Under the pieces are notes generated by a model. That model saw nothing but the letters and a program-made list of their open reading frames with translations, was not told where the DNA came from and ran no database searches. From Escherichia coli (GTDB taxonomy: Bacteria; Pseudomonadota; Gammaproteobacteria; Enterobacterales; Enterobacteriaceae): a DNA stretch of 64,000 nt. The DNA lies in assembly GCF_001677475.2 (NCBI RefSeq), contig NZ_CP015229.1; one strand, written 5' to 3'. Below are positions 2,216-64,000 of the stretch, in pieces. Numbering within the stretch: position 1 is the stretch's first letter; every line of letters begins with the position of its first letter. A program made the position numbers and the translations under genes.

Positions 2216-2330
2216 GTTGGATAAGGCACTCGCGCCGCATCCAACGTAAGGAGCACATTGCCTGATGCGACGCTTAACACGTCTTATCAGGCATACAAGT
2301 CGGTGCGAGAGCGTAGGCCAGCCGCACCGA
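2216..2330. repeat. REP/BIME-like palindromic units between convergent GH127 gene and yiaT
   Basis: Palindromes gttggat…atccaac (2216-2245), gcctgatgcgacgc…gtcttatcaggc (2260-2292), cggtgcg…cgcaccg (2302-2330); the middle unit matches the canonical REP form. Confidence 0.6.
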
Positions 2331-2344
2331 CATCCACCGGTGAA

Positions 2345-3085
2345 TTAAAAACGCCAGCTCACGCCGGTGACAAAGGTAAAACTCTCATTACGATCAATCA
2401 TCGGGCTGTCGGTAATCTCTTCCGGCAGCTCGCTGTATCCTGCGCTCGCCATCAATACGACGTGCTCTCCTATCGGGTATTTTGCCGTCAGGCTGACATA
2501 GGGCACCCAGGAATCCTGCGCGGAATAACTTGCCAGACCGCTACGACGGGACTCACTCTCTGAAATGCCATAGTAATAGTCACTGAAATTCTCGTCATAA
2601 TAGAGAACGCCCAGCGCAGGTGTCAGCGACAGACGACCTATCTGCATTTTGTGGAATACCGATAGCTCCCCCACCCAGCCGTTGCTGTTATCCAGAACGT
2701 CCGCAGCTGCAGAGGCTTTCACGGTTCCCCAACGCTCGTGGTGATACCAGGCAACCCCCGCCATAGCCGTACTATCACGCTTATCAAGCTGTTGCATGGC
2801 ATAATCGTCATTATCGGCAGGGTCAAATTCCAGCGGCATCCAGGATGCGGTCAGGCTAAGTTCATTTTTTTCACTTTGCGACAGAATAAAACCTAACGTG
2901 GTCTGACGAACATAAAAAGAATCACCTTCATAACTAATCAGGGGAATTGCCTTTGTATTTTCATTATAACCGCGATAAGGCGATTCATTATAAGCCGCAC
3001 CGGCACCAATGGATAATTCAGAAGCAGTTGCGCTTGCCATAAAAGGCAACGCAAATAACGCCACAATATTGCGGTTAATTAACAT
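2345..3085 (-). CDS. yiaT: MipA/OmpV-family outer-membrane protein YiaT
   Basis: 246-aa ORF; sequence recognised as YiaT (MLINRNIVALFALPFMASA… signal peptide, ends …GVSWRF aromatic C-terminus typical of OM beta-barrels). Confidence 0.85.
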   Translation of the reverse strand: MLINRNIVALFALPFMASATASELSIGAGAAYNESPYRGYNENTKAIPLISYEGDSFYVRQTTLGFILSQSEKNELSLTASWMPLEFDPADNDDYAMQQLDKRDSTAMAGVAWYHHERWGTVKASAAADVLDNSNGWVGELSVFHKMQIGRLSLTPALGVLYYDENFSDYYYGISESESRRSGLASYSAQDSWVPYVSLTAKYPIGEHVVLMASAGYSELPEEITDSPMIDRNESFTFVTGVSWRF

Positions 3086-44522: not shown

Positions 44523-45788
44523 ATGCCAACCTTCATTAAACTTCATTCATGGAAACCTTACACTCTGAAATCATCTATGATTTTAGAGATAATAACTTAT
44601 ATATTATGTTTTTTTTCATTAATAATTGCATTCGTCGATAACACATTCAGCATAAAGATGTATAACATCACTGCTATAACTTGCTTATTGGCGCTAATTT
44701 TACGTGGCAGACAAAAAAATTACAATATAAAAAATCTTATTCTGCCCCTTTCTATAATTATTATAGGCTTGCTTGATTTAATTTGGTATTCTATATTTAA
44801 AGTAGATAACTCGCCATTTCGTGCTACTTACCATAGTTATTTAAATACTGCCAAAATATTTATATTTGGTTCTTTTATTGTTTTTTTAGCACTAACTAGT
44901 CAGCTAAAATATAAAAAAGAGAGTGTATTATACATTTTATATTCTCTGTCATTTATAATTGCTGGATATGCAATGTATATTAATAGCATTCATGAATATG
45001 ACCGTATTTCTTTTGGTGTAGGAACGGCAACAGGAGCGGCATATTCAACAATGCTAATAGGGATAGTTAGTGGTGTTGCGATTCTTTATACTAAGAAAAA
45101 CCATCCTTTTTTATTTTTATTAAATAGTTGCGCGGTACTTTATATTCTGGCGCTGACACAAACCAGAGCAACACTACTCCTGTTTCCTGTAATTTGTGCT
45201 GTTACATTAATAGCTTATTATAATAAATCACCTAAGAAATATACTTCCACTATTGTTCTTCTAATTGCTATATTGGCTAGTATTGTAATTATATTTAATA
45301 AACCAATACAGAATCGCTATAATGAAGCATTAAATGATTTAAACAGTTATACCAATGCTAATAGCGTGACTTCCTTAGGTGCAAGGCTGGCAATGTACGA
45401 AATTGGTTTGGATATATTCAAAAAGTCACCTTTTTCATTTAGATCTGCAGAGTCGCGCGCTGAAAGTATGAATTTGTTAGTTGCAGAACACAACAGGCTA
45501 AGAGGGGCATTGGAGTTTTCTAACGTACACCTACATAATGAGATAATTGAAGCAGCGTCACTAAAAGGTCTGATGGGGATTTTTTCCACCATTTTCCTCT
45601 ATTTTTCACTATTTTATACAGCATATAAAAAACGCGCATTGGGTTTGTTGATATTAACGCTTGGCATAGTGGGGATTGGACTCAGTGATGTAATCATATG
45701 GGCACGCAGCATTCCAATTATCGTTATATCCTCTATAGTCCTCTTGCTTGTTATTAATAACCGCAACAATACTATTAATCAAGAATAG
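44523..45788 (+). CDS. waaL: O-antigen ligase (K-12 core-type WaaL)
   Basis: 421-aa polytopic membrane ORF, very AT-rich; sequence matches my recollection of the K-12 WaaL variant. Confidence 0.85.
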   Translation: MPTFIKLHSWKPYTLKSSMILEIITYILCFFSLIIAFVDNTFSIKMYNITAITCLLALILRGRQKNYNIKNLILPLSIIIIGLLDLIWYSIFKVDNSPFRATYHSYLNTAKIFIFGSFIVFLALTSQLKYKKESVLYILYSLSFIIAGYAMYINSIHEYDRISFGVGTATGAAYSTMLIGIVSGVAILYTKKNHPFLFLLNSCAVLYILALTQTRATLLLFPVICAVTLIAYYNKSPKKYTSTIVLLIAILASIVIIFNKPIQNRYNEALNDLNSYTNANSVTSLGARLAMYEIGLDIFKKSPFSFRSAESRAESMNLLVAEHNRLRGALEFSNVHLHNEIIEAASLKGLMGIFSTIFLYFSLFYTAYKKRALGLLILTLGIVGIGLSDVIIWARSIPIIVISSIVLLLVINNRNNTINQE

Positions 45789-45795
45789 ACAAGTT

Positions 45796-45822
45796 TAAGA
45801 AGTGAGTTTTAACTCACTTCTT
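45796..45822. terminator. Hairpin at the convergent waaL / waaU junction
   Basis: Inverted repeat aagaagtgagtt / aactcacttctt; overlaps the waaU stop, so acts for both converging operons if functional. Confidence 0.4.
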
Positions 45823-46887
45823 ATCTATACAAATTAATCTCTTTACTGAATCAGTTAAAATTTCAGTATCGATATCTTTTATCGTAAGTGTTGGAGATAC
45901 TATTTGTATAGATTGATGATTATTCGGGGCCCAAATTAAATGTGAGGGATATTCTGGTGTACGTGAATTAGGATAAAATGCAAGAGTTGGTTTATGATAA
46001 GCAGTAGCGATATGAACAAGAGCAGTATCAACAGAAATGACAAAATCACTATACTTAGTCAACGCGACAGTATAAATAAACTCGTCAAATGGTAGTGTTT
46101 CAATTTCAGGTATTGGTATTGTCAATAAATCTTGCGGTAACCCAGTAAATATCACTCGATAATTCTCAAACTGGACTTTCACTTCTTGATATATAACTTT
46201 TATTTGCTCAAACGTAAGTCGGCATATTTTTTTTGCACCTAATGGATTAATGATGACTATCCTTGTATTTCCAATAAAATCTATTATTTTATTTTCAACA
46301 TCTACAGGCAAATGCAAGTCGTAGTCGGTGGAAAATTCACCCTCACCATAAATATGCTTCAGTATTTCTATTGCTCGTGTACTCATATGTTCTTTTAAAC
46401 ATTCATCATGGGGATGGTAAAATGAATAGTAACGCTTATACCATTGATCAAAACCCAGAATGTAAGAATATTTTAAACTTGATAATATTAAACTATGCTT
46501 AAATGAGGGCATAGTTTCAAAGGGGTCTAATACAATATCGAACTGTAAATCCCGCAGATGCTTACATAGAGTAAGCATTTTAAGGGAACCTGTTGATTCT
46601 TTAATACAGAATCCAAATATATTTTTATTGTTAGAGAGAAACTCCCCACCCTTTCTATTTGTGAGAATAGTTATTTTAACTCCTTTACTATAAAGCTCAC
46701 GATAAATCGAACTTAATACAATTAAATCACCGAGTTTATTATTATCATGAATGATAAGGCATGATTTAACTTGTGCGAGATCTGTAACTTGATTATTGAT
46801 TTTTTTACGAAATAAAAAAGAAAGAAAATTAATCTTGATTTTGTTTATATAAAATCTTTTCTTTTTGTGAAAAGTTCCTAAACGCAT
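45814..46887 (-). CDS. waaU: LPS heptosyltransferase IV WaaU (WaaK)
   Basis: 357-aa GT9-like ORF, last gene of the long waaQ operon. Confidence 0.85.
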   Translation of the reverse strand: MRLGTFHKKKRFYINKIKINFLSFLFRKKINNQVTDLAQVKSCLIIHDNNKLGDLIVLSSIYRELYSKGVKITILTNRKGGEFLSNNKNIFGFCIKESTGSLKMLTLCKHLRDLQFDIVLDPFETMPSFKHSLILSSLKYSYILGFDQWYKRYYSFYHPHDECLKEHMSTRAIEILKHIYGEGEFSTDYDLHLPVDVENKIIDFIGNTRIVIINPLGAKKICRLTFEQIKVIYQEVKVQFENYRVIFTGLPQDLLTIPIPEIETLPFDEFIYTVALTKYSDFVISVDTALVHIATAYHKPTLAFYPNSRTPEYPSHLIWAPNNHQSIQIVSPTLTIKDIDTEILTDSVKRLICIDKK

Positions 46888-46966
46888 TTTTATACCATAA
46901 TATTTTAGTTTCAGGATGATTAATTAGCATAAGAATCAGTTGAAGCTTTATATTCCATTTTTTTTC

Positions 46967-47782
46967 TTATCTTATCTTATCCTGTGACTTTGACTCTTCT
47001 GAACTGATATCGAGAGGCTTAATAAATGGAATTACATCGTAAGAAATAGCCGTATCATCTGACAAATTATAAATATTAATATCTTCTACATTATCACGCA
47101 TAAAACGGAAAAATGGCAAGATTTTAAACAAATCCCTACTCAATTCCGAGGGCATAGGATTGTTACTTTCGTCATAGAAACGAGTACAACTACCAGTTAA
47201 ATCAAGACCAGAACAAATAATCCGCGCATACTTCAGCGAATAGGCTATTTGGATTGCAGCAAAGGCAACGGTATGGCATGAACAATAACCGAGATTAATA
47301 TCCTTGCAAAAGCCAACCAGACGACCTTTTTTAGAAAAAGGTACAGAAATCAGGAGCTCTTTATGAATTCGGCTCAAAATATTAAACTTAATCTTCTTAA
47401 TCAATCCACCTTTTTCTCTGCGGTAAAATGAACGTAGTACCAAGCAGTTTTGAAGGATGTACCGTTTATCTTCTTCAGAAGCATGTTCATAAACATCAAC
47501 ATTTACGATGGTATAACGACTTCTCTGGCTAAATTTATAAAAATCATCACGTCGTTGATGTAAAAAGCGAACATCAGTAAGTACATAAATATACGGAATA
47601 ATATTATGACTTAATAGATATTGCGCAGAACCATTGACAGCAATAACATCCCTTGTCTGCAGCACTGACAATGGTGTTTTTTGCGATGTGGGGCCGGAAA
47701 GAAAAATAATAACATCATCAGACGTTTTACTTTCTATCAGGTTCTCAACATCTTTTTTGCCAATGTATCTAATATTCTTCAT
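46967..47782 (-). CDS. waaZ: LPS core biosynthesis protein WaaZ
   Basis: 271-aa ORF in the K-12-type position between waaY and waaU; start codon not verified. Confidence 0.8.
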   Translation of the reverse strand: MKNIRYIGKKDVENLIESKTSDDVIIFLSGPTSQKTPLSVLQTRDVIAVNGSAQYLLSHNIIPYIYVLTDVRFLHQRRDDFYKFSQRSRYTIVNVDVYEHASEEDKRYILQNCLVLRSFYRREKGGLIKKIKFNILSRIHKELLISVPFSKKGRLVGFCKDINLGYCSCHTVAFAAIQIAYSLKYARIICSGLDLTGSCTRFYDESNNPMPSELSRDLFKILPFFRFMRDNVEDINIYNLSDDTAISYDVIPFIKPLDISSEESKSQDKIR

Positions 47783-47853
47783 GATAAACCTGTGAAATAA
47801 GAACTCCGCATAGAAATGTCCTGATGAAGACGTTTAAACGTAAGACGTTTACT

Positions 47854-48552
47854 TTATCGTGCTGGCTTCCCTTTCAAACGCCGCATAAGATTACGTATTT
47901 TTTTACGATAAACTAAAATATAATAACCGAGATCTTTAATCTCATTCTTAATACCATAATGTCGCTCTAAATCAATACGATCTTTCGCTTTACGTTGTGC
48001 AGATGCCCGTTTTCCTGAAAGATCAATAATGCGTACTTCACCATTTTCAATAATAAAATTACCACGGTGAGGATCACCAGATACCATACCATGTTCGTGC
48101 AATGAACGGATTGATTGTTGAATTTTATTTTTTAACGTTTCATCAATGTCGGGGATATCACACAACTCTACGCCATCGATATATTCGATAAGCATGATAT
48201 AAGTATGGACAAAACGTAATGTTTTCCGTTCTGCCAATAAATAAAAATCATTGAGTGTATTTAACCCTTCATTTCTTACTTTTTGGGTTTGCTCAAAAAG
48301 GCGTTCGTAATAATCACCTTTTAACAGAGACTTAAAGAAACGTTCGTTACGCTTAACTTTCGGAGAAAAAACCTTAAGAATCAATTTGCCGTAATCGGTA
48401 TCAATAAGCATAACTTTTGTATCATCAATAGAACGAAAAACCTTGATGATATTTATATTATAAGACAAGAAGTCATTTAATACATTGAGATACTTTGAAT
48501 TGTTTTCATCGGTAAAAACAACCAAGTCTTTGATCTTGCTCTTCTGAAACAT
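47854..48552 (-). CDS. waaY: LPS core heptose II kinase WaaY
   Basis: 232-aa kinase-like ORF. Confidence 0.85.
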   Translation of the reverse strand: MFQKSKIKDLVVFTDENNSKYLNVLNDFLSYNINIIKVFRSIDDTKVMLIDTDYGKLILKVFSPKVKRNERFFKSLLKGDYYERLFEQTQKVRNEGLNTLNDFYLLAERKTLRFVHTYIMLIEYIDGVELCDIPDIDETLKNKIQQSIRSLHEHGMVSGDPHRGNFIIENGEVRIIDLSGKRASAQRKAKDRIDLERHYGIKNEIKDLGYYILVYRKKIRNLMRRLKGKPAR

Positions 48553-48569
48553 AATAAACCAGTTAAGTG

Positions 48570-49586
48570 TTATTTACGGTAATATTTTCGGCAAAGATAA
48601 CAGACTCCTGCTATAATTCCTGAGATATAGTTATGCTGCACTAAAAGATGTTTATATCTTTTTTTAAATTCAATAATTGATTTTGCATCTCGTGGAGAGT
48701 CATCTTTCCATGGTGAATTTTCTAAAGCTATTTTATAGTATTTTACCGATGGATAAATTGCCCATTTGTGCCACGGTTTAGTTGCACCTGTATAATGAAT
48801 AAGCAGAGTACTTTCTGTAATCAGCTTTTTATAGTTTTGATGTGTTTTGTCTTTTAATTCACTTTTAATTGTATAAATTGTATTGTACTCACGAGGCAAA
48901 AATATTGTCATCCCTTTCAGTAAGACATTCATAACATCCTGATCAGGGTATTTATAAACATTATCTTTACTCATAAGAATAGACAACGCTTTTTCGGTTA
49001 GTTTTGCGTTAGCCCATTTTTTTAAATCTAAATAAACGACACCGGAATTAAAGTACTGCCCAAGTAATTCAGGATCAGACAACCTGGATGCCGCCTTTTC
49101 CTGCATTGGGTCAACATCTTTAACAACAGCAGCAACCGCTCCGTTTAAATCCAGATGCAATAGTTGGCTAATATCGCCTTTACAAACAACATCTGCATCA
49201 AGATAAAGCAAACGATTAAGCGTTAAACCCAATAATTGAAATGCAAATAAACGGAAGTACATTGCTCTTGACCAAACTTGTGTACAAGGCAAGCACTGAA
49301 GATTATCAGTATTTATTCTATAAAGTGTGATTCTTAATTGGTATTGCTCAGCAAGTTTTGCGACTTTTTGAAAGAAATCGTCGCTATAAACATCAGCAAT
49401 AATATAAAAATCAAGATTAACATGTCGATTATTGATGACAATTGAAGTAATGGATACACCTACAGCATCAAGATAATTTGCATCGACACCATAGGCAACA
49501 TTTAAACTTTCAGCAGTATTTTCATCAATAAGCCTAAAATCCCAAGCTTTAACTTTATCTATCTCTATGGCAGGAAATGAGTCCAC
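48570..49586 (-). CDS. waaJ: GT8 LPS alpha-1,2-glucosyltransferase WaaJ (WaaR)
   Basis: 338-aa family-8 glycosyltransferase. Confidence 0.85.
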   Translation of the reverse strand: MDSFPAIEIDKVKAWDFRLIDENTAESLNVAYGVDANYLDAVGVSITSIVINNRHVNLDFYIIADVYSDDFFQKVAKLAEQYQLRITLYRINTDNLQCLPCTQVWSRAMYFRLFAFQLLGLTLNRLLYLDADVVCKGDISQLLHLDLNGAVAAVVKDVDPMQEKAASRLSDPELLGQYFNSGVVYLDLKKWANAKLTEKALSILMSKDNVYKYPDQDVMNVLLKGMTIFLPREYNTIYTIKSELKDKTHQNYKKLITESTLLIHYTGATKPWHKWAIYPSVKYYKIALENSPWKDDSPRDAKSIIEFKKRYKHLLVQHNYISGIIAGVCYLCRKYYRK

Positions 49587-49625
49587 AAGGCTACCCTTAT
49601 ATCATTACTTTATAGTTTCCCAGTT

Positions 49626-50645
49626 TTAATTCTTTATCTTTTCAATAAAATAAAAAAGATAGTTGCTAAATCCTTTTAGATATCTATGCTTTTTAAGCAT
49701 ATGTTTTGCGCTATATCTTAATTGATTGCTATTATTCGGTTTCAGCAACGCCGTACTCTTCCATGGCGAAGCATTTTTTGCCTCCATAAAGGCTTGTGAT
49801 ACAGGATAATCCCAAGCCCAATCATGCCAGGGCTTGGTTGGACCGATATAGTGGATAAAAATAGTATCGTTGGTTACTGGGTTTGTAAAACTTTCTTTGA
49901 GTTGATAGTTTAAGCTAAACTGGGTGTTATATTTAATATCAGCAAAAATAAGTCTGTCTGCCAGCAACATATTTAATACATCCTGATCAGGATGTGTTAT
50001 TTTTTTGACTATTTCCGAATCATTTAGCATTGCAATGGCTCGTGCAGAAACCTGCTGAGCCGCCCATTGGTCAGTATTAATCAATAAAAAACCGGAGTTA
50101 AAGTAACCTTTAGCAATTCCCGCAACACCTAACGAATGTGCGCGTTTTTCCCACCAGTCAGCTTGCCCTTCTGTAACAACCATTGCGACTTTATCGTCAG
50201 GAAATGAGAATTTAATTAGGGGCTCAATAGTCCCCTGACAAATGATATCTGCATCCAGATAAAGGACTTTAGCCGCCTTATTAATAAAGTAATCTGCAAT
50301 AACAAAACGAAAATATATTGCATGAGTCCAGTTCTTTGTGCTAGGCAATGAGCGCAGTCGATCACCATTAATCAGATATATTTTAATTCTGGTTTTATAC
50401 TGCAACGCCAGTGCATCAAAATATTTACGATCATCATCACCAAAATAATCAGTAAAAATATGGAAGCACAATCGACTTCCTTCATTATACTTTAATATTG
50501 AAGCAATCGAAATTCCGCAACCAAATAGAAAATTTTTGTCAGTTCCATAAGCGATGTCCAGACAAAGATTTTCTGTTTCTACTTTATGATTATAATCAAT
50601 AACTGAATTAAGAAACTCAGTCTCCTGGAAAAACACCTGCTGCAT
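49626..50645 (-). CDS. waaO: GT8 LPS alpha-1,3-glucosyltransferase WaaO (WaaI)
   Basis: 339-aa family-8 glycosyltransferase, paralogous to the adjacent waaJ. Confidence 0.85.
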   Translation of the reverse strand: MQQVFFQETEFLNSVIDYNHKVETENLCLDIAYGTDKNFLFGCGISIASILKYNEGSRLCFHIFTDYFGDDDRKYFDALALQYKTRIKIYLINGDRLRSLPSTKNWTHAIYFRFVIADYFINKAAKVLYLDADIICQGTIEPLIKFSFPDDKVAMVVTEGQADWWEKRAHSLGVAGIAKGYFNSGFLLINTDQWAAQQVSARAIAMLNDSEIVKKITHPDQDVLNMLLADRLIFADIKYNTQFSLNYQLKESFTNPVTNDTIFIHYIGPTKPWHDWAWDYPVSQAFMEAKNASPWKSTALLKPNNSNQLRYSAKHMLKKHRYLKGFSNYLFYFIEKIKN

Positions 50646-51724
50646 TATTTCCTCCGGGAAATAGCAGAAATAATTATCTTATGTAATCTATCGTAATACT
50701 TCGATTTATAAAACTTATCGATCGACTCAGGAATTTTTTCATGTTCGATATGAATTTCACCTGCTATATATTTATTGAGAAGAGTTACAAAACCAGCAAT
50801 ATCTCCCGGTTGATACAGATGACCATTAACATCAGGTTGAATAATGTCAGCAGGCCCGGAGACACAATCGGCGCTGATGCAAGGAATTCCCCATGACAAG
50901 GCTTCAAGTAGGGTCATTGGGAAACCTTCAAAAGATGACGTGAGCAATAACGCACTCACTTTTTTAATATCTTGCTGGACCAATTCCCAGGGATGTTGTT
51001 GCCAACCATACCAGACAACTCGATCATCAATATTTAATTCTCTACCATAAGCCTGGCATTTTTCGAAATCGGAGCCATCTCCCAATACATGAAGTTTCCA
51101 GTCACCTTGCACTTGTGATAAGCCATCAAGGAGGTCTTTAACCCGCTTCTGGCCCTCGAATTTCATACGCCCAACATAAATGAACGTTGCCGTTTCACCT
51201 TCCTCAGGCCCAGGAATAACTGTGTCTTTAGCTTCGACTGGATTAAAAATAACATTTATCGTCGATTCTGGTACACCCCGATTAATCATTTGCTGTTTAA
51301 TGCCAGAGCTGATGGCTAAATGATAATCGGCACAGGTGATATATTCAGCATGTTTTTTGTGATCTAAAGAAAAATGCGGCCATGAAAATACAGGTACATC
51401 AATTCCCGATTTTTTACGAGCTTTGGCCGCATACAAACACGAGATCACGTCAATACAAATAACAACATCTGGCTGATAATCCTGAAGCCATTTGCTTAAA
51501 GCATGAATATGTTTCGCCCGACGCAAACAACCTAAGCGAATATTGGAAAATGAACACGAGTACTTAATACCGTCCAGCCATCCCTTATCCATTTTGTCAT
51601 TACGACAAAAGAAAAACATTTCACTATGGATATGTTGTTGCCTGAAGGTAGTAATAACATCACGAATGACTGTTTCCATGCCGCCAAATCCAGAAACAGC
51701 TTCGCCGATAAATGCTATTTTCAT
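50645..51724 (-). CDS. waaB: GT4 LPS alpha-1,6-galactosyltransferase WaaB
   Basis: Track ORF 369 aa; start taken at ATG 51724 (MKIAFIGEAVSGFGGMETV…, 359 aa); ATG 51736 and GTG 51754 are alternatives. Confidence 0.85.
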   Translation of the reverse strand: MKIAFIGEAVSGFGGMETVIRDVITTFRQQHIHSEMFFFCRNDKMDKGWLDGIKYSCSFSNIRLGCLRRAKHIHALSKWLQDYQPDVVICIDVISCLYAAKARKKSGIDVPVFSWPHFSLDHKKHAEYITCADYHLAISSGIKQQMINRGVPESTINVIFNPVEAKDTVIPGPEEGETATFIYVGRMKFEGQKRVKDLLDGLSQVQGDWKLHVLGDGSDFEKCQAYGRELNIDDRVVWYGWQQHPWELVQQDIKKVSALLLTSSFEGFPMTLLEALSWGIPCISADCVSGPADIIQPDVNGHLYQPGDIAGFVTLLNKYIAGEIHIEHEKIPESIDKFYKSKYYDRLHKIIISAISRRK

Positions 51725-51767
51725 TGAAACTCTCATTAATTGAGTAAAACTCACTGTTTTAATGGTT

Positions 51768-52692
51768 TTATTTTTCTATAAAATCAGAAACAATTGTTGA
51801 CATCATTTTATCAGGGCTGAATTTATATAAACTATCATAATCCATTGGTTTAACAGATGAGTTAATAAAATACTCTAACTTATCCCAATCATCATGCCCC
51901 ATTATAAAAAAGCGAGATTCACTATAGATTTCTGAACCAAGGATATTTATATTATTAGTAATTAATTTTTTATTGAAAAATAGTGCCTCAAGTATACGAA
52001 GAGTCCAGCCAGATTGGTTTTCTTTAGTTATATCAATAATTATATTAGCATTTAATATGCTCTTCATAAGGTAATTGCTTTTCAATCAAATACTTTGAAG
52101 TCGGAGATGATGTCTTATCTTTGACAACATTAAAATCTAGCTTACATCCTAGTGCTGTTAATCTATCGGCTAATTCATTAATTATTTGAAGACGTCCTTT
52201 ATCACGACCAAGAAAAAAACATATTGGCTGACTGTTATTTTTGTCAGATAAACTATAATTTATAATTTCATCCATTCCTATAGGAAAAAATCATTTTATT
52301 GCCTTGGTCTTTTCATTCCCTATAAATCTATGCTCAAAATTATAGATAATATCAAAATAATTAGAGTTATCAAAAATAAAATCTTCGCTGACAGTATTTC
52401 TTAGAAGTAATAGTTTACGATAATTAATATTTCTTAATATTTGCTTGTTAATACCTTTATTAATGACACTGTCATTAAAGATAATTATATCATCCTTTTT
52501 TACAGCATTTAGGTGATGTTTGATAAATAATCGCCCCAACCATGCATTATCCATCCCTAATTTCGAAATTTTCTTATTAACCCAGTTGTATTTGTTTGGT
52601 GTTGTTATATTTTTTATCTTGTACTTTTTTTTCAGGTACTGGATCATCTTTAATTCATAATCTGCAACCCAGTTTATAAAATAAATAGTCAT
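51768..52692 (-). pseudogene. waaS: waaS-like LPS core gene disrupted by an in-frame TGA and a frameshift
   Basis: Three consecutive minus-strand ORF fragments (52291..52692, 52045..52275, 51768..52085) together span 925 nt where one ~311-aa gene is expected. Fragments 1 and 2 share a frame and are separated by TGA (52291-52293); fragments 2 and 3 overlap in different frames. Confidence 0.6.
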
Positions 52693-52728
52693 AATGAAGT
52701 TAATTCCAGTACATACTGATAAATATTT

Positions 52729-53526
52729 TTATAATCCTTTGCGTTGTGTTCGCTCTTTAATATGCTCGGCCTTAACACTTGCCATGTTCAATAAATTCCG
52801 TTCAAGAGATAATATCTTACGTAAAGGCATCCCAAAATAAACCTTCATAAATCGCCAGATATCTCTCTGCGTTAGACCAATATTCATTGATGAGAAATAT
52901 AAACCAATCAAATCTTTATCCCGCCAACGACGTGGTACTTTTGCCCGTATCTGCGCGCGATGCAGGTCTATTACCGAAATTTTTAACCCATCTTCCCGGC
53001 CAGTAAATGGCAAATGGAGCAAAAAGTGGCAAATATAACAGTCGCGGTGATTTATCCCTGCGGCGTGCATTTTGTGCACCATGGTTGCCACACGCGCGAT
53101 CAGCATACGCTTAATATGTACATCAGGCGGGTTGACCGCCCAATCTGCACAATAATCTTCAAGGCTAATCGTGGGAGTGAGATCTTCGGTAATAATAAAT
53201 GATGTGCGAGTTAATGGATTTAACCCTTTTTCACCAAACCCTATTCCGTGCATCGTATCAACACCGACATCATGCAGTCGATGAATAGCGTGCCACTCTC
53301 TGTCTGCGCCTAAAACGGGCATCCGCAATGAGAGCAGGTTTTTTATAATTTCTTTTAAAGTCGTCCCTTTGTGCCACTTGAGGAAATAGCTTTTCCCGGC
53401 CAGTTCAAAGCGTAATGTGCGACGCGTCTCGAGTTCACGAAAGACCTCGCCATTCAGTTTTTTAACTTCTGCAAAGGCATCTTTACCACGCCAGAGTGTG
53501 GCAAGTGGCTCTTTTAATTCAACCAT
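52729..53526 (-). CDS. waaP: LPS core heptose I kinase WaaP
   Basis: 265-aa kinase-like ORF, overlaps the waaG 3' end by 8 nt. Confidence 0.9.
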
Positions 53527-54643
53527 CTAAACCACCAGTAATGATATCTGCCGCTTTCTCCGGCAAGCTATACAAATCCTGAGTATCGGCGTAATACCGA
53601 GCATTCTCCGCCCAAGCCATGCGCAATGGAGATTGAGTTAACGCTTTACGTAAAACGTCATTTAATTGTTCCTGGGAGAAAGGTTCAGCGATGACCGTTC
53701 CACAATTAGCATCCGCAATATAATGCGCGTACCCACATACCGCTGTTGTTAAAACAGGTAATCCAGCAGTGATCGCTTCAAGAAGAACGATACCCGCGGC
53801 TTCCTGATAAGCGGGATGCAGTAATAAATCAGCGGCTGCCATTAATTCTGACACATCATTGCGACCGGAGAAGAAATGCACATTGCTCCGCACGCCGAGT
53901 TTTTCTGCCAGCGCTTCAAACTTTCGCGGTTTATCCTGCCCAACAACAAATAACAGCGTATTGTGACGTAATGATTCCGGTAACGATGCCAAAGCTTCAA
54001 TTGAGCGATCCACACCCTTACGGCCAAAATCTGATCCAACCTGCAGTAATAAGTTTTGTTGTTCAGTGATGCCATTTTTCTGGCGATAAATTTCACGACT
54101 GTTTGGGATTTGCGCGCTGTATTTTCTGTCCGGGTAGATACCAGGAGGAAGAATTTGAAAACGTTCTGGTTCAGTTTGGTAATGCTTCTGGAAATCGGCG
54201 ATTTGCTTATCCGTCAGCATCATGAGTTTCGTCGGTTTACCATGCTCGAAAGTCGCTCGCTCAAATGCAGCATAATGGCGATAGCGTGATGTTAAACGAT
54301 AGAACAAGCCCTTTTCTTGCGCCACTTTCTCGGCATAACAGACATCAGCGGCAAAATAAACATCCAGCCCTGGCATCTTATTAAAGCCAACAACCCGATC
54401 AGCGGGATGTCCCTTCAGATGGTTTTGAACCCAGGCATAATATTCTGCATTACGTCCATGGTTAGTATGGGATTTAACCGGTACGCGAATAAGCTCAAAT
54501 GCATCCGGGCAATCGCCTTCCCACGACTGTGTATATACCCGAACATGGTGGCCCCGTGTGGCAACTGTTGAGGCAATACGCATAAAGTCACGCTGTAACC
54601 CACCAAATGGAAAATATTTATATAAGCAAAACGCCACGATCAT
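53519..54643 (-). CDS. waaG: GT4 LPS glucosyltransferase I WaaG
   Basis: 374-aa ORF recognised as WaaG. Confidence 0.95.
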
Positions 54644-55674
54644 AATTGTGCATTCCTGTCAGCTGAAGGGGCATCTTCTGGCAACAGCTTTTCCGTAGCG
54701 GCAATGACATCTTCCGCTGGAATAACAGAAAGATATTTTTTGTTGCGGTCAAGTTCGTGCCGGGTAGGCATTTTTTGATAATTCCCCGCCCAGAACTGAA
54801 TAATATTCTCGGTCCATGGACGCCAGAATACATGATCAGTAGCCCCAAACAGGCTAATAACTGGCGTGTTCACCGCCGCCGCAATATGCCCCGGCGCAGA
54901 ATCCACACCAATAAAGAGCACTGCATGATCAATTAATGCGCCCAGTTCAGGAAAACGTGTTTTACCGGCAAGGCCGGTAATAGGTTTTGTTTGGCAGCCT
55001 CGTGCAATTTCATCTACGCAAGCGAGATCATCTGCCGAAGGGCCACAAGTCAGCACAACCTGATAACCACGATGTTGCAACGCATCGATAACCATAGAAA
55101 ATTTATCGTTATCCCAGCACTTAAATAGCTGTCGGGCTGTCGGCTGGATGACGACATAATGATCTTTCACGCCCAGTGCATCTAATTCCTGGCGCATTTT
55201 CTTCCAGCAATCATCAGCATAACTCATTGTTGTTTCAGTATAAAAATCGGTAATACCTAATGACTCAAGGACCGACAAATTACGCTCAACAATATGTGTA
55301 CCGTGTATAGGCGCTAAGTGTGTAAAGCTTTTTTTCCAAATGCCATGCTGCCGATGAGCATAAAGCTGCGATATTTTCATCCGTGCAGGTAAACAACGTA
55401 CCAGCAGGGCCACCATCCACTGATCCGTAAGATTAATGACCAGGTCGTAATTATTCGCACGCAGAGTTTTTATCAGTGAAAGTGCATTTTTAATTTTATC
55501 GAATGTTCCCGCACCTTTATTGCTTATACCATAGAGTGCATTAATTTCTGGGTTTTCAGATAAAATCGGAATTGTATCCTGGTAAAGCAGCATATCGATT
55601 TTAGCATTGGGATAATTCTGCTTGAGTGTACTGATTACAGGAGTAGTTAATAACATATCTCCGTGATATCGCAT
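54640..55674 (-). CDS. waaQ: LPS heptosyltransferase III WaaQ
   Basis: Track ORF begins at GTG 55710 (356 aa); I choose ATG 55674 (MRYHGDMLL…, 344 aa); start not certain. Confidence 0.85.
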   Translation of the reverse strand: MRYHGDMLLTTPVISTLKQNYPNAKIDMLLYQDTIPILSENPEINALYGISNKGAGTFDKIKNALSLIKTLRANNYDLVINLTDQWMVALLVRCLPARMKISQLYAHRQHGIWKKSFTHLAPIHGTHIVERNLSVLESLGITDFYTETTMSYADDCWKKMRQELDALGVKDHYVVIQPTARQLFKCWDNDKFSMVIDALQHRGYQVVLTCGPSADDLACVDEIARGCQTKPITGLAGKTRFPELGALIDHAVLFIGVDSAPGHIAAAVNTPVISLFGATDHVFWRPWTENIIQFWAGNYQKMPTRHELDRNKKYLSVIPAEDVIAATEKLLPEDAPSADRNAQL

Positions 55675-55757
55675 CTTTATGACCAGGATTTTTCGAAATG
55701 GCTTTTCCACTAGCGACTCTTTTGTGTGATTGTCTGGTTAAGTTAAGCAGAAAAAAG

Positions 55758-55769
55758 CACGCTACCGCC
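55758..55769 (-). promoter_or_regulatory. ops element (RfaH recruitment site) in the waaQ operon leader
   Basis: Exact 12-mer GGCGGTAGCGTG on the transcribed (minus) orientation, reverse complement of cacgctaccgcc at 55758-55769, ~85 nt upstream of the waaQ start. Confidence 0.75.
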
Positions 55770-56114
55770 CCAGGCTCAACAGCTACCCGAATACTGATAA
55801 CGCACTTACTTTGACGCGCTAGTGTATCATTTCTTTCGCAGCAATCCGACCCGAATGATTTTTATACACAAAATATGATTTAACCATAAAAATCATATAG
55901 ATAAAATTTTGCATACAGAGAATCCAGATATTGTCTATGTAAAGTTGCAATCCTGGCTGAAATTCAATGAATCGCATAAAAATACAAAAAAATGAAGATT
56001 TAGCAGCAGATCAGCTCAAACAGAGACTATTTAAGTCAAAAACGGGAAAAGTAATGGTAAAGCCACAGCTAAATACATAGAATCCCCAGCACATCCATAA
56101 GTCAGCTATTTACT

Positions 56115-57879
<1,765 letters not shown>

Positions 57880-57886
57880 CGTTTAT

Positions 57887-57908
57887 GCCGGATGGTATGC
57901 CATCCGGC
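57887..57908. terminator. Hairpin between convergent coaD and mutM
   Basis: gccggatgg-tatg-ccatccggc, perfect 9-bp stem, 7 nt after the coaD TAG and 9 nt before the mutM stop. Confidence 0.45.
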
Positions 57909-57917
57909 TCGCATCAA

Positions 57918-58727
57918 TTACTTCTGGCACTGCCGACAATAAAACGTTGCCCGCTGCGCATGTTTAGTCGCCACAATCGGCGTACCGCACACCCGACACG
58001 GCTCGCCTTTTCGCCCGTAAACCTGCAATTCCTGCGCGAAATAGCCCGGTTTACCATCACTTTGCAGAAAATCTTTCAGAGTTGTACCACCCTGCTCAAT
58101 CGAACGCAGCAACACCGCTTTAATCACCCGAGCTAACAATTCACACTCTGCCAGCGACAGTGATGACGCCAGCCGATCCGGATGGATCCCCGCCGCAAAC
58201 AGTGATTCGCTGGCATAGATATTCCCTACCCCTACCACCAGCTTGTTATCCATCAGCCACGGTTTAATCGCCGTTTTTTTCTTCTCGCACTTCTGATGCA
58301 GGTACTCACCGTTGAAATCGTCGCTAAGCGGCTCCGGTCCAAGATGGGCCAGCACGTTGTGCCCTTCCAGCTCTTTGGTCCACAGCCAGGCACCAAAGCG
58401 GCGCGGATCGGTGTAGCGCAGCACTTTACCGTTGCTCATCACCAAATCAACATGGTCATGCTTTTCAGGGGGAAGTTCTTCTGGAAGGATGCGCAGGCTG
58501 CCAGACATCCCCAAATGAATGATAATCCAGCCCTCAGGCAGCTCCAGCAGCAGATATTTAGCCCGCCGCTGCACGCTAAGCACTGGTTGGTCGCTTAAAC
58601 GGTAGATCTCTTCTGAAACCGGCCAGCGCAAGCGTCCGTTGCGCACCACCGCATGAAGAATGGTTGCACCAACGAGATGCGGTTCTATGCCGCGACGGCT
58701 GGTTTCAACTTCGGGTAATTCAGGCAT
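57918..58727 (-). CDS. mutM: Formamidopyrimidine-DNA glycosylase
   Basis: 269-aa ORF starting [13 protein letters not shown]…; C-terminal zinc finger [25 protein letters not shown]. Confidence 0.95.
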
Positions 58728-58776
58728 AGCATCTCCAGGAATGAACAGATGCAGTCAATATGGGGGCAGGCAGATA

Positions 58777-58805
58777 ACAAAAAACCCCGCCGGGGCGAGG
58801 TTTTT
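58777..58805 (-). terminator. Intrinsic terminator downstream of rpmG (rpmBG operon)
   Basis: On the minus strand a GC-rich hairpin (plus-strand ccccgccggggcgagg, 58785-58800) is followed by a T-run (plus-strand aacaaaaaa, 58777-58784); located between rpmG stop and mutM start. Confidence 0.6.
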
Positions 58806-58824
58806 CGTTACATCAAAGCAAAAA

Positions 58825-58995
<171 letters not shown>

Positions 58996-59012
58996 TTATT
59001 TCCTCTAAGTAC

Positions 59013-59270
<258 letters not shown>

Positions 59271-59465
59271 TTAGCTCGAGCTTCGTATGGGGTATTGGCG
59301 CCTCGTCAGGCTTTACAGCCCGGTCATCGCAGTTCTATGTGAACTCTCGATTGCCAGGCCCAAATGCCAAACCCGAGATTCTCAAAGGTGGCGTAGTATA
59401 CGCTGACTCAGCGATGTGCTCAAGTCCCGAACAGACAAAGATCCCGAAGGATCGCGCATAGCGGG

Positions 59466-60140
59466 TTAAATCCAGCCGCGTTCGGCAAAAGAAACATACT
59501 CTCCACGCCCAATCACGATATGGTCGAGCACGCGTAAATCCATGAACTGACAACTCTTTATTATCCGTTCAGTAATGAGTTTATCCGCTTTACTGGGTTC
59601 AGCACAACCCGAAGGGTGATTATGTGCAAGGATCAGCGCCGAGGCGTTTATTTTTATCGCTTCGCGGATAATTTCCCGAGGATGGACTTCAACATGGTTT
59701 AGCGTGCCGGAAAAAAGACGGCTATGCGTTATAACCCGGTGTTGGGAGTCGAGAAAGATCACCATAAAGATCTCCCGCTCCTCGCCCGTAAGCTGGCTTT
59801 GTAAAAATTCCCTCGTCATCTCCGGGCTGAGTAAAGGGCTTTCTTCACGCATCCGCACGTTGTAGTAACGCCGCGCCAGTTCAGCAATCCCCTTTAACTG
59901 GGCAAATTTCGCCACGCCAATTCCATGAACGCCACTAAATTGTTCATATTCAGAGGTTAACAAGCCATAAAGAGAGCCGAAATTCTCCAGCATCTCTTTT
60001 GCCAGGGTTAATACATCTTTACCGCGCGTTCCGGTACGCAGAAATAGCGCCAGCAGCTCGACATCCGTTAAGGCGCTAATACCAAACTTCAGCATTTTTT
60101 CGCGCGGCATCAACAGCTGTGCATTATTTTTCACCTTCAC
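59466..60140 (-). CDS. yicR: UPF0758 / JAB-MPN domain protein YicR (formerly RadC)
   Basis: 224-aa ORF with the JAMM-like motif HNHPSG; track start is GTG 60140, with GTG 60134 and ATG 60110 as alternatives. Confidence 0.85.
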
Positions 60141-60305
60141 CTCCTTTGTGGTGCTCGCATCCTGTCATAGCCGTTCCGTTAAATCGACGGCCAGTTTTCA
60201 ATCCTGGAAAGCGCCTCGCAAAGTGATTCTCAGGTGAAGGCACGACAACAAAAGTATTGTGATAAAATCGCCAACTTCTGGTGTCACCCAACAGGAAAAA
60301 TCATC

Positions 60306-61526
60306 ATGAGCCTGGCCGGTAAAAAAATCGTTCTCGGCGTTAGCGGCGGTATTGCTGCCTATAAAACCCCTGAACTGGTGCGTCGTTTGCGCGATCGCGG
60401 GGCCGACGTCCGCGTAGCCATGACCGAAGCGGCAAAAGCCTTTATCACCCCACTTAGCTTGCAGGCGGTTTCTGGTTATCCCGTTTCCGACAGTCTGCTG
60501 GACCCGGCAGCCGAAGCCGCTATGGGCCATATTGAGCTGGGTAAATGGGCTGATTTAGTGATTCTCGCCCCTGCCACGGCAGATTTGATTGCCCGTGTTG
60601 CTGCCGGAATGGCGAATGATCTGGTATCGACGATTTGTCTGGCCACACCTGCGCCTGTAGCCGTGCTCCCCGCCATGAACCAGCAGATGTACCGTGCCGC
60701 TGCCACGCAGCATAATTTAGAGGTGCTTGCTTCCCGTGGTTTGCTCATCTGGGGGCCAGACAGTGGCAGTCAGGCTTGTGGTGATATCGGCCCTGGGCGA
60801 ATGCTCGATCCGTTAACCATTGTTGATATGGCGGTAGCGCATTTTTCGCCCGTCAACGACCTGAAACATCTGAACATTATGATTACCGCCGGCCCGACGC
60901 GTGAACCGCTCGATCCGGTGCGTTATATCTCTAATCACAGCTCAGGCAAGATGGGTTTTGCTATCGCCGCCGCCGCTGCCCGTCGTGGCGCGAACGTCAC
61001 GCTGGTATCAGGTCCGGTTTCACTACCGACGCCACCGTTTGTTAAACGTGTTGATGTGATGACTGCGCTGGAAATGGAAGCGGCCGTGAATGCTTCTGTA
61101 CAGCAGCAAAATATTTTTATCGGTTGCGCCGCCGTGGCGGATTATCGCGCAGCTACCGTGGCCCCAGAGAAAATCAAAAAGCAGGCCACGCAGGGTGATG
61201 AATTAACAATAAAAATGGTTAAAAACCCCGATATCGTCGCAGGCGTTGCCGCACTAAAAGACCATCGACCCTACGTCGTTGGATTTGCCGCCGAAACAAA
61301 TAATGTGGAAGAATACGCCCGGCAAAAACGTATCCGTAAAAACCTTGATCTGATCTGCGCGAACGATGTTTCCCAGCCAACTCAAGGATTTAACAGCGAC
61401 AACAACGCATTACACCTTTTCTGGCAGAACGGAGATAAAGTCTTACCGCTTGAGCGCAAAGAGCTCCTTGGCCAATTATTACTCGACGAGATCGTGACCC
61501 GTTATGATGAAAAAAATCGACGTTAA
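60306..61526 (+). CDS. coaBC: Bifunctional phosphopantothenoylcysteine decarboxylase / synthetase
   Basis: Conserved start ATG 60306 ([20 protein letters not shown]…), 406 aa; track ORF extends 24 codons upstream. Confidence 0.95.
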
Positions 61527-61962
61527 GATTCTGGACCCGCGCGTTGGGAAGGAATTTCCGCTCCCGACTTATGCCACCTCTGGCTCTGCCGGACTTGACC
61601 TGCGCGCCTGTCTCGACGACGCCGTAGAACTGGCTCCGGGTGACACTACGCTGGTTCCGACCGGGCTGGCGATTCATATTGCCGATCCTTCACTGGCGGC
61701 AATGATGCTGCCGCGCTCCGGATTGGGACATAAGCACGGTATCGTGCTTGGTAACCTGGTAGGATTGATCGATTCCGACTATCAGGGCCAGTTGATGATT
61801 TCCGTGTGGAACCGTGGTCAGGACAGCTTCACCATTCAACCTGGCGAACGCATCGCCCAGATGATTTTTGTTCCGGTAGTACAGGCTGAATTTAATCTGG
61901 TGGAAGATTTCGACGCCACCGACCGCGGTGAAGGCGGCTTTGGTCACTCTGGTCGTCAGTAA
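61504..61962 (+). CDS. dut: dUTP diphosphatase
   Basis: 152-aa ORF overlapping the coaBC 3' end. Confidence 0.95.
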
Positions 61963-62068
61963 CACATACGCATCCGAATAACGTCATAACATAGCCGCAA
62001 ACATTTCGTTTGCGGTCATAGCGTGGGTGCCGCCTGGCAAGTGCTTATTTTCAGGGGTATTTTGTAAC

Positions 62069-62665
62069 ATGGCAGAAAAACAAACTGCGAAAAGGAACCG
62101 TCGCGAGGAAATACTTCAGTCTCTGGCGCTGATGCTGGAATCCAGCGATGGAAGCCAACGTATCACGACGGCAAAACTGGCCGCCTCTGTCGGCGTTTCC
62201 GAAGCGGCACTGTATCGCCACTTCCCCAGTAAGACCCGCATGTTCGATAGCCTGATTGAGTTTATCGAAGATAGCCTGATTACTCGCATCAATCTGATTC
62301 TGAAAGATGAGAAGGACACCACAGCGCGCCTGCGTCTGATTGTGTTGCTGCTTCTCGGTTTTGGTGAGCGTAATCCTGGCCTGACCCGCATCCTCACTGG
62401 TCATGCACTAATGTTTGAACAGGATCGCCTGCAAGGGCGCATCAACCAGCTGTTCGAGCGTATTGAAGCGCAGTTGCGTCAGGTATTGCGCGAAAAGAGA
62501 ATGCGTGAGGGTGAAGGTTACACCACCGATGAAACCCTGCTGGCAAGCCAGATCCTGGCCTTCTGTGAAGGTATGCTGTCACGTTTTGTCCGCAGCGAGT
62601 TTAAATACCGCCCGACGGATGATTTTGACGCCCGCTGGCCGCTAATTGCCGCGCAGTTGCAGTAA
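62069..62665 (+). CDS. slmA: Nucleoid occlusion factor SlmA (TetR family)
   Basis: Conserved start ATG 62069 ([20 protein letters not shown]…), 198 aa. Confidence 0.9.
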
Positions 62666-62670
62666 TATGA

Positions 62671-62694
62671 CGCCGGATGACTTTTCATCCGGCG
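62671..62694. terminator. Hairpin between convergent slmA and pyrE
   Basis: cgccggatga-cttt-tcatccggcg, perfect 10-bp stem, 5 nt after the slmA stop and 7 nt before the pyrE stop. Confidence 0.5.
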
Positions 62695-62701
62695 AGTTTC
62701 T

Positions 62702-63343
62702 TTAAACGCCAAACTCTTCGCGATAGGCCTTAACCGCCGCCAGATGTTCCGCCATTTCCGGCTTCTCTTCCAGGTAAGCAATCAGGTCTTTCAGGGTGAT
62801 GATAGAGATCACTTTGCAGTTGTAATCACGCTCAACTTCCTGAATTGCCGAAATCTCGCCGCGCCCCCGTTCCTGACGATCGAGCGAAATCAATACGCCA
62901 GCAAGCGTCGCGCCATTGGCCTGAATAATTTCCATCGACTCGCGGATCGCCGTTCCGGCGGTGATCACATCATCCACCAGCATTACGCGTCCTTGTAACG
63001 CGCTACCGACCAGATTGCCACCTTCACCATGGTCTTTTGCTTCTTTGCGGTTAAAGCAGTACGGCAGGTCCAGGTAATGATGCTCCGCCAGCGCCACGGC
63101 AGTTGTGGTGGCAATCGGGATCCCTTTGTAAGCAGGGCCAAACAGCAGATCGAACTCAATGCCGGAATCCACCAATGCTTCAGCGTAAAAACGGCCTAAC
63201 AGTGCCAGATCGCGCCCGGTATTAAACAGCCCGGCGTTGAAGAAATAGGGGCTTTTGCGCCCGGACTTCAGCGTAAACTCGCCAAACTTTAACACCTGCT
63301 TGCTAAGCGCAAATTCAATAAACTGGCGCTGATATGGTTTCAT
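62702..63343 (-). CDS. pyrE: Orotate phosphoribosyltransferase
   Basis: Start ATG 63343 ([13 protein letters not shown]…) after GAGGAG; 213 aa. Confidence 0.95.
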
Positions 63344-63375
63344 GCCTTCGCTCCTCATCTTACTTTTCTACAGAC

Positions 63376-63403
63376 AAAAAAAAGGCGACTCATCAGTCGC
63401 CTT
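63376..63403 (-). terminator. pyrE attenuator (intrinsic terminator in the rph-pyrE intercistronic leader)
   Basis: Minus strand reads aaggcgactgatgagtcgcctt followed by 8 T (plus-strand A-run 63376-63383), between rph stop (63409-63411) and pyrE start. Confidence 0.75.
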
Positions 63404-63408
63404 AAAAA

Positions 63409-64000
63409 TCAGTTTGCCAGCGCCGCCTTCTGCGTCGCTACAATGGATTCGATTCCCCCTCGGGCCAGCGCCAACAAGGTGAGTAACTCTTCATGGGTGA
63501 ACGGCTCGCCTTCTGCCGTCCCCTGCACTTCAATGATGCGCCCGTCTTCGGTCATCACTACGTTCATGTCGGTCTCTGCGGCTGAGTCTTCAACGTATTC
63601 CAGATCGCAAACCGCTTCGCCGTTCACAATTCCGACAGAAACTGCGGCTACCATCCCTTTCATCGGGTTGGTTTTCAGCTTGCCGTTTTCCACCAGCTTC
63701 TGTAGCGCATCTGCCAGCGCCACGCAGGCACCCGTAATCGACGCGGTACGCGTGCCACCATCAGCCTGAAGCACGTCGCAGTCCAGCGTAATGGTGAACT
63801 CACCCAGCGCTTTCAAATCTACTGCCGCACGAAGAGCACGGGCGATCAGACGCTGGATTTCCATGGTGCGTCCACCCTGCTTACCTTTCGCCGCTTCACG
63901 CGCGTTACGGGTGTGGGTAGAACGTGGCAGCATGCCGTACTCTGCGGTGATCCAGCCCTGGCCCTGACCTTTCAGGAAGCGCGGCACGCCTTCTTCAATA
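63409..64000 (-). CDS. rph: Ribonuclease PH, 3' portion (5' end beyond window edge)
   Basis: ORF open to the window end; translation …[26 protein letters not shown]… ends …ATQKAALAN with stop 5 nt upstream of the attenuator hairpin. Confidence 0.9.

Follow-up and report, generated by a model that had tools for sequence, protein, structure and literature searches.

An exact ops element within a JUMPstart sequence in the divergent waaQ/waaA control region of an Escherichia coli strain, and its predicted role in RfaH-dependent antitermination

Is the ops-like sequence in the leader of the long waaQ operon a signal through which RfaH would be loaded onto RNA polymerase, or could it serve another function, or none? 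The question arises for a stretch of 64,000 nucleotides of an Escherichia coli contig (NZ_CP015229.1, assembly GCF_001677475.2; hereafter, the window), in which the waaQ operon, on the minus strand, and waaA and coaD, on the plus strand, diverge from a common intergenic spacer. A preliminary description of this DNA had predicted RfaH-dependent antitermination over the waaQ operon, and that prediction is supported here by an exact ops element within a JUMPstart sequence, by the near-identity of the leader to rirA and, by analogy, by published data on the orthologous rfa/waaQ loci. We consider it very probable that the spacer is the orthologue of the divergent waaA/waaQ control region of E. coli K-12, and that RfaH, recruited through ops, acts as an antiterminator over the waaQ operon.

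The preliminary description placed a 404-bp spacer (55711-56114) between a waaQ operon of about 9.9 kb and a waaA-coaD operon, and included a damaged waaS in the former. All of this holds: the spacer has the length given if waaQ starts with the GTG at 55710, the waaQ operon runs from 55710 to 45814, waaA and coaD correspond to the K-12 annotation, and waaS is disrupted by an 11-bp deletion and by an in-frame TGA resulting from a CA>TG change (Table 1). Further upstream, open reading frames and PGAP annotation reveal hldD-waaF-waaC-waaL. A head-to-head arrangement of waaA and waaQ, with divergent kdtA/rfaQ promoters in a spacer of about 400 bp, was reportedly described by Clementz in 1992, in the Journal of Bacteriology; the window shows the same arrangement, over 404 bp. 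Six small ORFs of 27-52 aa are found within the spacer and their sequences are poorly conserved or look non-coding.

Table 1. Features of the waaQ/waaA control region and of the flanking operons (positions refer to the window).
Feature	Position	Strand	Basis or remarks
waaQ-G-P-(S)-B-O-J-Y-Z-U operon, K-12-type core	45814..55710	-	9.9 kb; ORFs and PGAP annotation of two matching E. coli records
waaS pseudogene, within the operon	51768..52692	-	in-frame TGA at 52291-52293; 11-bp deletion near 52051
waaQ, heptosyltransferase III, first gene of the operon	54640..55710	-	356 aa from GTG
47-nt stretch from ops to the waaQ start	55711..55757	-	includes a weak Shine-Dalgarno-like AAGAG
rirA orthologue (first 73 nt of the waaQ transcript)	55742..55814	-	72/73 identity to K-12 rirA (b4760)
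U6 tract, starting 2 nt after ops	55751..55756	-	follows a predicted long hairpin with the ops RNA as 3' arm
ops element GGCGGTAGCGTG	55758..55769	-	exact 12/12 match to the consensus
JUMPstart, 39 nt	55758..55796	-	Rfam RF01707; GGTAGC...GGTAGC direct repeat, 5-bp hairpin, ops as 3' end
Candidate extended -10 promoter element TGATACACT	55821..55829	-	read from the sequence; hexamer at -12 to -7 relative to 55814
Block of about 80 nt adjoining waaA, nearly invariant across genera	56035..56114	+	conservation profile; candidate promoter and short 5'UTR
waaA, coaD	56115-57392, 57400-57879	+	divergent from waaQ; match the K-12 annotation

The length of the spacer depends on the start codon of waaQ, and becomes 440 bp with the ATG of NC_000913.3. 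In this curated K-12 record, waaQ begins at an ATG located 36 nt downstream of the GTG and codes for 344 aa, whereas PGAP puts the start at the GTG both in the K-12 record, for a spacer of 405 bp, and in DETEC-S792. The KILVI β-strand of WaaQ (residues 7-11) aligns to residues 2-6 of the paralogue WaaF; because of this match, the start of waaQ must lie upstream of the K-12 ATG. Codons 2-12 of waaQ show mostly synonymous or conservative changes between core types, and the GTG, the AAGAG preceding it and the KILVI strand are conserved across genera. AAGAG is found at 55717-55721 (minus strand), 6 nt before the GTG, and both are invariant in 28 Enterobacteriaceae spacers. Judging from these comparisons of sequence, the PGAP start, which gives 356 aa, appears correct and that of the K-12 reference too short; since the KILVI alignment, codons 2-12 and the invariant GTG and AAGAG all favor the GTG, 404 bp is the better figure for the spacer.

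The plus-strand letters at 55758-55769 are CACGCTACCGCC, the reverse complement of which, GGCGGTAGCGTG, matches the 12-nt ops consensus GGCGGTAGnnTG in full (55769..55758). This is the only exact copy of GGCGGTAGCGTG in the 64-kb window, for which 0.01 copies are expected from dinucleotide shuffles, and it confirms the 12-mer that the preliminary description had reported for the waaQ leader. The same account had singled out the orientation of the 12-mer relative to waaQ as the point on which the reading could fail. Both ops and waaQ are on the minus strand; the waaQ leader therefore carries ops on its non-template (sense) strand, as needed to recruit RfaH. The element lies 47 nt upstream of the GTG, outside the coding sequence, and 45 nt downstream of position 55814, the transcription start transferred from the K-12 rirA annotation, and hence at about +46 to +57. 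A scan for the wider JUMPstart sequence, also proposed in the preliminary description, returned a full-length match to Rfam RF01707 at 55796..55758 (minus strand; model positions 1-38 of 38); its score of 53.1 bits exceeds the gathering score of 35, and its E-value is 2.6e-9 for the whole window. No Rfam family other than JUMPstart scored above threshold in the 64-kb window, and a permissive scan (E up to 1) of positions 54500-57500 found JUMPstart alone. The pair at alignment columns 32/48, the second of the JUMPstart stem, covaries among the leaders compared (AU in 18, UA in 9, GU in 7 and GC in 1).

Shorter or imperfect ops-like sequences are also present in the window. The 8-mer GGCGGTAG occurs six times and is thus in excess over the 1.4 copies expected; the five occurrences outside the waaQ leader (17672-, 21493+, 24738+, 27848+ and 60830+) have no CGTG tail to complete the 12-mer and no JUMPstart, and were rejected as ops elements. 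Also rejected was GGCGATAGCGTG at 54277-54288 (plus strand), a 12-mer antisense to waaG with a single mismatch (G5A), a substitution that abolishes RfaH recruitment in published assays; it is probably a chance match.

The leader of waaQ corresponds to a known RNA. In NC_000913.3, the ncRNA rirA (b4760) is annotated at 3808166..3808238, and its alignment to positions 55814..55742 of the window is free of gaps and identical at 72 of 73 positions; the sole difference, an A>G change, converts an A-U pair of the JUMPstart stem into G.U. Because of this near-identity to the annotated K-12 rirA, the transcription start of waaQ is placed upstream of ops, and we infer that it lies near 55814. In K-12, RirA is an RNA of 73 nt that has its 5' end in common with the waaQ mRNA and holds ops and JUMPstart (PMC5736990; PMC6358824; PMC8745692). 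The window likewise has a 73-nt sequence which would share the 5' end of the waaQ mRNA, with both ops and JUMPstart inside. The presence of the RirA sRNA in the same leader is an addition to the preliminary description.

Just upstream of the predicted start, the candidate promoter has the extended -10 element TGATACACT and lacks a good -35. A scan of positions 55600-56250 for consensus σ70 promoters gave one promoter-like site, against 1.7 expected, on the plus strand and in the variable middle of the spacer. The extended -10 was missed by this generic scan because it has no credible -35, which the scan needs. At the same distance, a TGnTACA(C/A)T element is found in Escherichia, Citrobacter, Salmonella, Silvania, Cedecea, Shimwellia, Kosakonia, Pseudocitrobacter and Buttiauxella, so that the extended -10 keeps a fixed position across genera of the Enterobacteriaceae. 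No terminator was found by a terminator scan of the same interval (55600-56250). Farther upstream, at -41 to -82 of the waaQ start, we noted a perfect 11-nt inverted repeat, ATGATTTTTAT / ATAAAAATCAT (55855-55865 / 55886-55896, 20 nt apart), which is present in K-12, partial in R1/R3-type strains and without conservation across genera; the repeat may be the site of a regulator or an AT-rich coincidence.

On the opposite side of the spacer, the block of about 80 nt by waaA is more conserved than the rest of the spacer in the 28 Enterobacteriaceae sequences. A candidate waaA promoter can be read from it (TGGTAA at 56055-56060, a spacing of 17 nt and TAGAAT at 56078-56083), for which the leader would be of about 25 nt. 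The conservation of the block (56035-56114) exceeds what a promoter alone would need. In E. coli 99COLEC, an ISApl1 element (1973-3000 of that locus) interrupts the spacer between waaQ and waaA and ends 88 nt before waaA, at the equivalent of about 56027 in the window. The insertion parts the two promoters and leaves the conserved waaA-side block intact. As waaA is near-essential, the insertion is consistent with the block sufficing for waaA expression; alternatively, a promoter could be provided by the IS. An island of about 28 nt, TTTTTTGTATTTTTATGCGATTCATTGA (waaQ-sense strand; 55965-55993), also stands out in the middle of the spacer, which is variable otherwise; the island is invariant between the E. 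coli core types and partly conserved across genera, at roughly 60-95% per position.

A segment of 109 nt comprising the promoter and leader of waaQ is present with at least 90% identity in 5422 of the 5426 complete E. coli genomes, and a 651-nt query around the spacer finds a match in 5424 of the 5426. Over the 651 nt, identity is 99.7% to DETEC-S792 and 93.3% to K-12, with most strains at about 85%; the spacer differences relative to K-12 cluster in the middle (about 55880-56020), and both ends are conserved. Divergence from DETEC-S792 over positions 44600-64000 of the window is uneven, with 1-8 differences per kb from waaU to the spacer, waaS apart, and 10-17 per kb in waaA and beyond. This mosaic pattern suggests a recombination junction at or near the spacer.

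The comparison was extended to other species, mainly of the Enterobacterales, with one genome per species and a total of 43 WaaQ loci. In 34 of these, ops is found on the sense strand upstream of the WaaQ match, as GGCGGTAGCGTN, at a distance of 40-65 nt and in one case of 120 nt (40-52 nt in 28 of the 34); the exact 12-mer is present in 30 loci and the other four have GGCGGTAGCGT followed by A or T. Among the loci with no ops nearby, one is cut by a contig end and one is a distant Neisseria homologue. In a Brenneria, a Superficieibacter and UBA5654, an ops that is exact or has one mismatch lies about 1.3-1.5 kb upstream of waaQ; in the Superficieibacter and UBA5654 loci, what immediately precedes waaQ resembles the end of waaG. 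A second Superficieibacter locus, with upstream sequence resembling that of the first, has no sense-strand ops. Neither ops nor JUMPstart was found within 1.5 kb upstream of waaQ in Siccibacter turicensis and S. colletis; both leaders retain the divergent waaA and the TGGTACAAT promoter, and these are the only Enterobacteriaceae loci in the set with a divergent waaA and no ops in that interval. All 27 Enterobacteriaceae loci keep waaA in divergent orientation; the spacer measures about 380-412 bp in 26 loci and 320 bp in one. The sequence and orientation of ops, the match to JUMPstart, the identity to rirA and the conservation within E. coli and in other Enterobacterales are established directly.

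RfaH loading, antitermination and the function of RirA are transferred from published orthologous loci; rfaH itself is absent from the 64-kb window, and we assume that the genome has it. Annotated as ops, the 12-mer would be the cis-acting signal through which expression of the LPS outer-core operon depends on RfaH, an antiterminator linked to virulence. Transcription would start near 55814, from a minus-strand promoter with the extended -10 TGATACACT, and RNA polymerase, after transcribing JUMPstart and ops, would pause at U11 of ops, where the exposed non-template GGCGGTAGCGTG would form a small hairpin and recruit RfaH. In published work, polymerase pauses at U11 and the non-template hairpin presents G5 and T6 to RfaH; all positions of ops except G2 contribute, and recognition is of non-template DNA in the paused complex (PMC5995543). 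RfaH would then remain on the polymerase, exclude NusG, block both Rho-dependent termination and the backtracked pausing induced by H-NS/StpA filaments, and recruit the ribosome to the weak start 47 nt downstream. As a result, transcription would reach the end of the AT-rich string of genes from waaQ to waaU. The first 73 nt of this transcript would also constitute the sRNA RirA, reported in reviews of K-12 work to accumulate as a discrete RNA and to bind and damp RfaH (PMC5736990; PMC6358824; PMC8745692).

Several lines of published evidence bear on this sequence of events. RfaH loading and RfaH-dependent elongation at rfa/waaQ have been documented by ChIP-seq in CFT073 and K-12; in CFT073, the RfaH signal runs from the ops of the rfa leader onward along the operon and, in a ΔrfaH strain, the occupancy of RNA polymerase collapses along it (PMC9765446; see also the reviews PMC6358824; PMC8745692). 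All RfaH targets are coated by H-NS/StpA, with ops 40-67 nt from the start codon (PMC9765446), and the waa operons of K-12 are in a static region with extended protein occupancy, attributed largely to H-NS and StpA (bioRxiv 10.1101/2024.06.20.599902). The window fits this picture, with ops 47 nt from the start and ahead of a long envelope operon of 36.9% GC (the window as a whole has 49.1%), in which the segment from waaS to waaU has about 30%; this is the kind of A/T-rich DNA that H-NS favors, and H-NS binding is taken here from the literature. A preprint drawing on RegulonDB treats waaYZU as a separate operon (bioRxiv 10.1101/2024.06.20.599902), so that transcription of the whole 9.9 kb as a single unit may not be obligatory, and the distal genes may be expressed in part independently of RfaH and of read-through.

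The damage to waaS gives the question a further dimension. The TGA arises from the CA>TG change at 52292-52293, relative to K-12 and DETEC-S792, and waaS has in addition several private substitutions; it differs at about 20 positions per kb, compared to 1-8 in the remaining genes of the operon. No complete E. coli genome with a match shares the lesions; the best waaS match among these is 98.4% identical and spans 1042 bp, against 1031 in the window. Near the 3' end of waaZ, a third copy of an ATAAG repeat (46965-46969, minus strand), present twice otherwise, brings a stop into frame, and the product loses its last 14 residues (271 instead of 285 aa). WaaZ and WaaS both contribute to the Kdo(III)-rhamnose glycoform branch, and the lesions in the two genes may reflect the loss of one pathway. 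From the premature stop in waaS to waaB, about 570 nt of RNA would be untranslated; ops is named for the suppression of polarity such as that caused by an untranslated gap after a premature stop. The anti-polarity activity of RfaH would keep the genes downstream of the broken waaS expressed, and polymerase modified by RfaH is likely the reason why the intact genes past it can still be expressed. The ops element therefore offers an explanation of how expression could continue beyond a waaS with both a frameshift and a nonsense mutation.

Could the leader have a second function, as an attenuator sensitive to RfaH? In such an arrangement, which we regard as unlikely, a hairpin of about 50 nt would be followed by U6: the 3' part of ops would pair with nucleotides 9-22 of the leader, enclosing the JUMPstart hairpin, with the U tract at once after. 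Polymerases free of RfaH would terminate and release a short, RirA-like RNA, and those modified by RfaH would read through; the ratio of the short RNA to the operon mRNA would then report available RfaH. Folding of the 73-nt leader does pair ops with nucleotides 9-22 in a structure that ends 2 nt before U6 (-21.8 kcal/mol). In minimum-energy folds, at least four ops nucleotides are paired with the far 5' leader in 33 of 36 species' leaders. Across 35 distinct sequences, pairing amounts to 82.8% for the 13 outer pairs and to 86% for the whole structure, compared to 32-50% in controls with slid 3' partners. GC, AU and GU all occur at columns 14/63, and 24 of the 36 leaders have at least six T in the 8 nt after ops.

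The ops arm is, however, invariant for other reasons, so that the support consists nearly entirely of one-sided transitions, which keep G.U-type pairing by default. The z-score of the fold is only -1.64, the base of the outer stem is rich in G.U pairs, and the outer stem is not predicted by RNAalifold from the 36 leaders, which yields the Rfam hairpin and a 3-bp hairpin inside ops only. The terminator scan was negative at the U6 tract, the annotated 3' end of RirA (55742) is 9 nt past this tract, and a U tract directly after ops is absent in Kosakonia, Buttiauxella, Cedecea sulfonylureivorans, Pectobacterium and Affinibrenneria. The conserved long, imperfect hairpin predicted to form between the ops RNA and the 5' leader, and followed by U6, is the one mildly new lead, and might serve as an RfaH-sensitive attenuator giving rise to RirA. 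We hold still more doubtful the extension by which the RirA-like RNA released from an attenuator that senses RfaH acts as a decoy and binds RfaH, in a feedback between RfaH supply and LPS-core synthesis.

A role mainly in trans, with the leader serving to make the RirA sRNA and titrate RfaH, and not as a site of antitermination in cis, draws on the identity of the stretch to the annotated rirA at 72 of 73 positions. We find it improbable. The two roles are not mutually exclusive, and the phenotypes of RirA come from overexpression, whereas the role in cis rests on ChIP-seq and on the travelling ratios of RNA polymerase at rfa (PMC9765446). Moreover, RfaH recognizes ops as non-template DNA in a paused complex (PMC5995543), and all RfaH operons have their ops shortly before the first gene.

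That the 12-mer is a chance match or a functionless relic in this strain is exceedingly improbable: 8-mers such as the five other GGCGGTAG do arise by chance in coding sequence, but these have neither the CGTG tail nor a JUMPstart, ops-like sites within coding regions are unbound by RfaH (PMC9765446), and the 12-mer, with 0.01 exact copies expected, sits in a full JUMPstart (E 2.6e-9) at a position and in an orientation conserved across genera, data that effectively refute this reading.

The preferred reading, RfaH recruitment through ops at the head of the waaQ operon, is contradicted by nothing in the sequence and places the window among systems that are well described, and the JUMPstart/ops/RirA leader of the waaQ operon is textbook biology, not a discovery; nothing new is added to the biology of RfaH. 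Comparison across genera adds precision on three small points: the start of waaQ at the GTG, the conservation of the extended -10 promoter, and the possibility of a terminator-like fold around ops. The closest known system is the waaQ (rfaQ) leader of K-12, with the same locus, gene order and orientation, a spacer of 405 bp compared to 404 bp in the window, and a rirA that differs at one of 73 positions. The ops, extended -10, U6 tract, AAGAG and GTG are identical in the two strains, and JUMPstart differs by the single A>G. Unlike K-12, the window has a broken waaS and a shortened waaZ, and substitutions in the middle of the spacer that account for the 93.3% identity over 651 nt. With the other RfaH operons (rfb/wzx, kps, hly and tra), the waaQ operon shares a 12-nt non-template ops in the 5' leader, 40-67 nt before the start, ahead of a long, AT-rich, H-NS-bound envelope operon. 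An sRNA from the ops leader, RirA, has been reported for waaQ alone among the RfaH/ops operons, and a U6-U8 tract directly after ops is a feature of the waaQ leaders of many Enterobacteriaceae. As for the JUMPstart family itself, the waaQ leader is a full-length match to RF01707, with the 5-bp hairpin of the model and covariation at the second pair of its stem; in the model the first 7 nt and ops are unpaired, whereas in the waaQ leaders these segments, together with leader sequence further upstream, can form an outer stem.
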